Origin: Escherichia coli
Lineage (GTDB): Bacteria > Pseudomonadota > Gammaproteobacteria > Enterobacterales > Enterobacteriaceae
Direction: 5' to 3' (one strand)
NCBI RefSeq assembly: GCF_044324875.1
Contig: NZ_CP172185.1
DNA: 64,000 bases
Part shown: piece by piece, positions 51,566 to 53,472 of the stretch
Layout: every line of letters begins with the position of its first letter
How positions within the stretch are numbered: position 1 is the first letter of the stretch
Notes under the pieces: generated by a model
What the model was told of the DNA's origin: nothing
Seen by the model: the letters and a program-made list of their open reading frames with translations, nothing else
The model's database searches: none
Program-made: the position numbers and the translations under genes

Positions 51566-51829
51566 TCAGGCGCGGATTTGTTGTGATGTGGTTGTGCTCT
51601 GGCAGATGGCAACGTGTGCGACGTCCACCAGTTTATTTAACTGACTAAACAGTAAGTCGACCGACCGTGGGCTGGCAACGGTCAATTCGATATTTATATT
51701 TTGTGCATCGCTGGCGGCGGCCATATTCATTGAGCAGACGTGGAAACCACGATGACGCACCACGCGTAAAACACGTTCTAAGGTTTCCGGATTGAAGCGA
51801 GCCGATACATTGACCTGATGTTGCATCAT
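51566..51829 (-). CDS. ilvM: Acetolactate synthase II small subunit
   Basis: 87-aa translation [29 protein letters not shown]... Confidence 0.95.
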
Positions 51830-53472
51830 GATAATTTCTCCAACATTTCTGAATTACTGGCACCAGGCGGCACCAGCGGCCAGACGTTCTCAAGCTCGTC
51901 GATTGAGACATGAAGCAGGTATGGCCCATCACTGTTCAGCATGGTGTCGAGTGCCGCTTCAACCTGGTCTTTACGGGTGATGTGTTGGCCAGGGATGCCG
52001 AAGGCGCTGGCTAACATGAGGAAATCGGGGTTATCGGTAAGGGTGGTTTCGCTGTATCGTTCCTGGAAAAACAGTTGCTGCCATTGTCGAACCATCCCTA
52101 ATCGTTGGTTATCGAGTAAGACGATTTTCAACGGTAACTGCTTGCGTTTTACGGTGCCCAGCTCTTGCACATTCATCATGAAAGAGCCGTCACCGGAGAT
52201 ACAGACGACGGTATCGTTCGGTCGCGCTACTTGCGCGCCAACCGCCGCAGGTAAACCAAAACCCATGGTGCCTAAGCCGCTGGAGGTGATGAAATTTTCC
52301 GGGCGAGTGTGGGCGATGTGCTGGGCAGCCCACATCTGGTGCTGCCCCACATCTGTGGTCACGACGCAATCCGCAGGTTTACGATCCGACAGTTGTTTTA
52401 ACAACAACGGCGCGTAGATAGCGTCACCGGGATGGTCGTAGCGCCAGGCATGTTCATCACGCAGCTGCGCGCAGTATTGCTGCCAGTCATTGATATTTAA
52501 CGGCTGCTGTAATGCTGGTAAAAGAGCATTTAAATCACCCTGTAAAGCCACATGTACCTGACGCAGCTTGTTCATTTCTGCCGGATCGATATCCATATGG
52601 ATAACGCTGGCGTGTGGTGCGAAGGTGTTCAGTTTGCCAGTCACCCGGTCATCAAAACGTGCACCCACGGCGATCAGCAAGTCGCACTCCTGCACCGCGA
52701 AGTTCGCCGCTTTGGTGCCGTGCATTCCCAGCATGCCCAGATAGTACGGATAATCCGCTTCAACTGCGCCCAGCCCTTTCAGCGTGCAGGTGACAGGCAT
52801 TTTTGTAGCAGCGAGAAATTCTCGTAAAGCAGGAACTGCCTGCGCCATACCTACGCCCCCGCCAACGTACAGCATCGGTTTTTGCGCTTTTGCCAGCATC
52901 TGGCGCGCTTGCTCGACTTCGGCATGGGGGAAAGTCACTTCGTTTTCAACGGTGGTGAACCACGGTTCCAGATCGCCGCTGGCTAACTGGATATCTTTTG
53001 GGATATCGACCAGAACCGGACCAGGACGACCTGAGCTGGCAACGTCGAATGCTTCAGCCATGATGCGCGGCAACTCTTCCAGCGACTGCACCAGAAAGCT
53101 GTGCTTGGTACAGGCTAATGACAATCCCAGTACATCCACTTCCTGAAATGCGTCAGTGCCGATAAACGGTGCGGATACCTGACCGGTGATGGCAACAACA
53201 GGGATGGAATCTAACAGCGCGTCCGCAAGCCCGGTTATCAGGTTGGTTGCACCTGGACCAGACGTGGCGATACATACGCCAGTTTTGCCGGTAGCACGGG
53301 CATAACCGATAGCCGCCATTGCTGCACCTTGCTCGTGTCGGCACAGCAAGTGTTCCACGCCACCGTCATACAATGCATCGTAAACCGGCATAATTGCGCC
53401 ACCCGGATAACCGAAAACGGTGTTCACACCCTGTGCCCGCAACGCATGTACAACCCACTGTGCGCCATTCAT
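51826..53472 (-). CDS. ilvG: Acetolactate synthase II large subunit (intact reading frame)
   Basis: Uninterrupted 548-aa [37 protein letters not shown]... with ThDP-enzyme motifs; overlaps ilvM start. Confidence 0.95.

Follow-up and report, generated by a model that had tools for sequence, protein, structure and literature searches.

Does the ilvG gene in the stretch of Escherichia coli DNA analyzed here (64,000 nucleotides, hereafter the window) encode a complete catalytic subunit of acetohydroxyacid synthase II (AHAS II), and what does the state of this gene say about the strain from which the DNA came? IlvG and its partner IlvM constitute AHAS II, a ThDP-, FAD- and Mg2+-dependent enzyme that condenses pyruvate with a second pyruvate or with 2-ketobutyrate and is not subject to feedback inhibition by valine. 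In K-12, ilvG carries a frameshift that has been linked to the valine sensitivity of this strain (PMC8605374, PMC7066862, PMC3032704). The window ilvG is, with little room for doubt, an ordinary wild-type gene of a natural E. coli lineage, located in an intact ilvL-ilvX-ilvG-ilvM-ilvE-ilvD-ilvA operon. The observation of an uninterrupted reading frame is correct but ordinary: this is the usual state of the gene in E. coli, of which the broken K-12 copy is the exception, and an intact ilvG is already known at what is a textbook locus.

The gene occupies 51826..53472 of the minus strand, stop codon included, where the ORF list of the window contains a single ORF of 548 aa with an ATG start and a TGA stop, identical in position and length to the uninterrupted ilvG described in the earlier note; its assignment as the AHAS II catalytic subunit is based on the ORF list, a match to the family model NF006524 and alignment to K-12. 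No other ORF in this part of the window exceeds 158 aa, and a 548-codon open frame is therefore far beyond what chance would produce. Directly downstream of ilvG lies the gene for the cognate AHAS II small subunit, ilvM (51566..51829, minus strand; 87 aa), which was recognized from the ORF list and by the NF008362 model (133.9 bits; cut-off 68). The overlap of the two genes, likewise claimed in the note, is apparent from the ORF coordinates as four nucleotides, the start of ilvM being placed 4 nt before the ilvG stop in the sequence ATGA. The arrangement in MG1655 is the same: in the extracted locus (L001), ilvG spans 2561-4205 and ilvM spans 4202-4465.

In a global alignment, the 1647-nt ilvG of the window and the 1645-nt ilvG pseudogene of MG1655 (NC_000913.3 3950560-3952204) differ by 60 substitutions and one indel. 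The latter is an AT dinucleotide at nt 977-978 of ilvG (window positions 52495..52496, minus strand), which is deleted in K-12 and keeps the frame open in the window; the site reads CCGTTAAATATCAATGAC in the window and CCGTTAA--ATCAATGAC in K-12. The window frame is thus whole because it retains the dinucleotide that K-12 has lost: the K-12 frame ends in ...PLNQ* at a TGA in codon 328, whereas that of the window continues as ...PLNINDWQQ... and remains open to codon 548. The K-12 type of pseudogene, defined by the 2-bp deletion at nt 977-978 and the TGA at codon 328, is not what the window carries. The frameshift that the earlier note ascribed to K-12 can be seen directly in NC_000913.3, in which the 1645-nt gene is annotated as a pseudogene, and the alignment disclosed neither this frameshift in the window nor a premature stop that the note might have missed. 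In the genome paper on E. coli W, the K-12 lesion in ilvG is given as "two separate base pair insertions" (PMC3032704); this wording differs from the alignment, which displays a single 2-bp (AT) deletion in K-12 relative to the window. The 2-nt gap of K-12 is seen likewise against the other E. coli genomes sampled.

The frequency of the two states was assessed in 5,426 complete E. coli genomes, of which 5,425 contain ilvG. A 70-nt probe of K-12 sequence spanning the deletion junction was searched in all of them, and the exact K-12 junction was detected in 340 of the 5,426. Among the matches listed, the genomes with the exact junction include ER1709, an O16:H48 strain and a genome of 4.64 Mb; the other genomes listed, apart from H70, align 72 nt of their record to the 70-nt probe, so that the 2 nt are present. 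The match of H70, the last of those listed, is partial and begins at probe position 8, and its record span is also 2 nt longer, so that here too the 2 nt are present. The 70-mer had no match in 612 genomes, whose state at the AT site was left unscored. An intact ilvG is what nearly all E. coli have as wild type, and strains W, B and Crooks are reported to have it (PMC3032704). The intact form is also the ancestral one: the IlvG proteins of E. albertii and seven further Escherichia/Shigella entries in the aligned set all read PLNINDWQ at this site. K-12 is an atypical reference at ilvG, as it is at yifN, and its state should not be taken as the default.

The context of ilvG is that of an ilvL-attenuated ilvLXGMEDA operon, both gene order and leader being confirmed. 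Directly upstream of ilvG lies ilvX (53475..53525, minus strand), a small ORF of 16 codons whose translation equals that of K-12 IlvX, and further upstream is ilvL (53612..53710, minus strand), which is present in the ORF list and encodes the 32-aa leader peptide of the operon, with a high content of Ile, Val and Leu (MTALLRVISLVVISVVVIIIPPCGAALGRGKA; 81.9 bits to NF007744, cut-off 59). Between them, at 53556..53590 on the minus strand, is the attenuator, a terminator hairpin followed by a U-run (AAGACCCCCGCACCGAAAGGTCCGGGGGTTTTTTTT), which folds at -21.6 kcal/mol in RNAfold and is identical in K-12 and in Ecol_316, a natural isolate. A simple terminator scan missed this element, the stem of which is bulged, and both RNAfold and Rfam recover it; the Rfam match to RF02744 (53492-53781, minus strand; 157 bits, gathering score 88) covers the ilvL gene together with the attenuator. 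RF02744 bears the name "Soft rot Enterobacteriaceae Rev 39 5'UTR", yet it matches the ilvLXGMEDA leader and attenuator here. Between the start codons of ilvL and ilvG, a stretch that includes the attenuator and ilvX, the DNA is identical to that of K-12, as are the IlvL, IlvX and IlvM protein sequences. The promoter region preceding ilvL has several SNPs relative to K-12, and the promoter-proximal ones are shared with Ecol_316.

Downstream of ilvM follow, all on the minus strand, ilvE for the branched-chain amino-acid aminotransferase (50617..51546; 309 aa from MTTKKADY), ilvD for dihydroxy-acid dehydratase (48702..50552; 616 aa) and ilvA for threonine deaminase, the last gene of the operon (47155..48699); ilvE and ilvD were assigned from their ORFs and collinearity with K-12, and the start of ilvA, within an open frame at 47155..48702, was placed by collinearity with the 1545-nt ilvA of K-12. 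The ilvA and ilvY frames converge with a 4-nt overlap at 47155-47158, as annotated in Ecol_316; in K-12 a gap of about 50 nt separates the two genes, and this is where the BLAST alignment with K-12 is interrupted. The ilvD gene of Ecol_316 is annotated as frameshifted (L006 14674-16523), reflecting either a genuine lesion or a mistake in the assembly, and pseudogene calls in the ilv operon are consequently not confined to ilvG of K-12.

At the protein level, IlvG matches the NCBIfam model NF006524, "acetolactate synthase 2 catalytic subunit", with 1072.5 bits (cut-off 738), residues 1-547 of its 548 aligning to positions 1-547 of the 548 in the model. The three domains of ThDP enzymes (N-terminal, central and C-terminal; PF02776, PF00205 and PF02775) are recorded in Pfam for the identical protein. 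Glu47, Phe109, Met250, Arg276, Val375, Asp428, Asn455, Met460 and Trp464 are all conserved, and a GDG(x25)N motif is present at residues 427-455; according to the AHAS literature, Glu47 is catalytic, the GDG...N sequence is the ThDP-Mg motif and Trp464 governs substrate specificity. Relative to K-12 ilvG with the AT restored, the window gene has 54 synonymous and 6 non-synonymous differences (dN/dS ~0.03), and ilvG is evidently under strong purifying selection. The six replacements among the 548 residues are, from K-12 to the window, C146S, A227V, A306V, H333Y, S342A and H494P. Ser146, Tyr333, Ala342 and Pro494 of the window correspond to the consensus residues of the eight further Escherichia IlvG proteins in the alignment; Val227 and Val306 are in the minority, occurring together in one other of the nine aligned sequences (E. 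coli protein P0008). Public records place the exact protein on 150 contigs under the name E. coli. In the 90% protein cluster that holds IlvG, the representative and several members are a 1041-aa Bacteroides CusA/CzcA efflux protein, which looks like an artefact of database clustering and not a feature of the window.

The intact frame by itself is no proof of a source outside K-12, because ilvG+ revertants of K-12 exist (PMC8605374). The non-K-12 origin proposed in the note is shown instead by the 60 substitutions in ilvG and by the divergence of the surrounding DNA: in reverse-complement orientation the window corresponds to K-12 3,940,024-3,997,932, with which it is collinear at ~97.6% identity over 58 kb, with genes extending from rrnC through the ilv, rep, rho, wec and hem genes to uvrD. 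Over the ilv region, the complete RefSeq genomes contain no close match: the best one for 24 kb is 98.5% identical, and that for ilvD-ilvA reaches 99.0%, in ST2747 and MS 69-1. O157:H7 Sakai is among the genomes searched and, had it been the source, would have given a high-identity match. Ecol_316 is 99.6% identical over window positions 3-15728 and about 98.5% elsewhere. The segment at 44600-50000, which contains ilvC, ilvY, ilvA and ilvD, falls to 94-96% identity with K-12 and ~96-98% with Ecol_316, neighbouring bins being at ~98% or more. This uneven divergence along the ilv cluster suggests that the window is a recombination mosaic among E. coli lineages. Full identity over 7,647 nt was observed with a draft contig of GCA_040438525.1.

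Other loci of the window also differ from K-12. At 3639-9506, between lptM and cyaY, lies an island of ~5.8 kb that is absent from K-12 and contains four plus-strand ORFs: one, of 184 aa, has a weak match to DUF3304, and the other three (490, 436 and 685 aa) are paralogues with matches to the DKNYY family of Pfam. Of the 5,426 complete E. coli genomes, only 52 contain at least 80% of this island; Ecol_316 has it at 99.9% identity, and a short remnant beside cyaY is all that most genomes, including K-12, retain. An insert of 636 bp (16964-17599) lies between glmZ and hemY; it is absent from both K-12 and Ecol_316 and carries an ORF of 199 aa (17005..17604, plus strand) without a Pfam match. The yifN-equivalent gene, a second K-12 pseudogene that is whole here, is located at 43714-44163 on the plus strand (149 aa, within the ORF 43657..44163) and is identical at 146 of 148 positions to an Ecol_316 gene annotated as a PemK/MazF-family toxin, whereas yifN of K-12 is frameshifted from frame 0 to frame 2.

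An open frame in the window might also have arisen in ways other than inheritance of a wild-type gene. The source could be a K-12 derivative with a repaired ilvG, whether a spontaneous ilvG+ (ilvO-type) revertant or the product of engineering, and such strains with an open ilvG frame have indeed been described; however, the revertants regained the frame through a 1-nt deletion in the TGA and not by recovery of the AT (PMC8605374). The window moreover contains the 5.8-kb island and the 636-bp insert that K-12 lacks, and in view of the 60 ilvG substitutions and the ~97.6% identity over 58 kb, this origin was rejected, its probability being negligible. An equally minute probability attaches to the open frame being an assembly or sequencing artefact that masks a real indel. 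Frameshifts at the level of annotation do occur elsewhere in the ilv operon, as in ilvD of Ecol_316. For the window ilvG, an artefact is ruled out because the contig of the independent assembly GCA_040438525.1 is 100% identical over its 7,647 nt and the exact IlvG protein recurs on 150 contigs.

A further alternative concerns function instead of origin, namely that the frame is open but AHAS II is non-functional, the enzyme or its expression being impaired by A227V, A306V or the SNPs of the promoter region. Val227 and Val306 are minority alleles in the nine aligned sequences, and there are SNPs relative to K-12 upstream of ilvL, both of which would be compatible with such impairment; however, the Ala-to-Val changes are conservative and lie outside the residues that were checked, P0008 of E. 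coli combines both valines, the dN/dS of ilvG is 0.03, and the recurrence of the identical protein on 150 contigs indicates a successful lineage. Impaired expression is likewise opposed by the promoter-proximal SNPs, which are common to the natural isolate Ecol_316. Impairment is on these grounds very improbable, and it is likewise very improbable that the V227, V306 allele confers kinetic or regulatory properties unlike those of characterized AHAS II.

The preferred reading, a wild-type ilvG of a natural lineage, carries a prediction about phenotype. With IlvM intact and the ATGA overlap positioning ilvM for translational coupling with ilvG, the two subunits would be expected to assemble into an AHAS II that is insensitive to valine. 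Valine-insensitive AHAS II activity is a reasonable prediction from the sequence, and the functional enzyme foreseen in the earlier note is similarly plausible given the catalytic residues, IlvM, the leader and attenuator, and purifying selection. Since AHAS II is free of valine feedback inhibition, the source strain would be expected to grow in minimal medium despite excess valine, and unbroken translation of ilvG should spare ilvEDA the polar reduction of expression of the K-12 kind. The valine sensitivity of K-12 has been attributed to the ilvG frameshift (PMC7066862), and K-12 revertants with a restored ilvG frame are valine-resistant, growing at 1 mg/ml valine, with frame restoration thought to relieve polarity on ilvEDA (PMC8605374). 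The source is characterized as a natural E. coli other than K-12 in which the pathway for branched-chain amino acids is complete, and for which valine-resistant growth is predicted.

Among solved structures, the closest by sequence is the large subunit of E. coli AHAS I, IlvB (PDB 6LPI; E = 3e-162); a sequence search of the PDB returned no near-identical chain for AHAS II, which appears to be without a solved structure. IlvB shares the ThDP-dependent AHAS fold family with IlvG of the window; it is, however, the large subunit of a paralogous and valine-sensitive isozyme that employs IlvN as its small subunit. The ilvG pseudogene of K-12 MG1655 (b4488) is the orthologous locus, with 96.4% nucleotide identity to ilvG of the window, and lacking the AT at nt 977-978 it terminates at codon 328, unlike the window gene. 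K-12 also departs from the consensus of other Escherichia by Cys146, Ser342 and His494. At position 146, the window and the eight other Escherichia sequences have Ser where K-12 has Cys; at position 342, the window has Ala, as do the eight others except two with Thr, in contrast to Ser in K-12; and at position 494, the window has Pro, as do the eight others except one with Ser, whereas K-12 has His. Other Escherichia IlvG proteins are ~98-99% identical to that of the window, and the best DNA identity of its ilvG among the complete RefSeq E. coli genomes (n=5,426) is 98.7%, with none at 99% or above, the differences being allelic only. In length (548 aa), operon position and ATGA overlap, the IlvG of non-K-12 E. 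coli, including W, B, Crooks and most natural isolates, is the same as that of the window.
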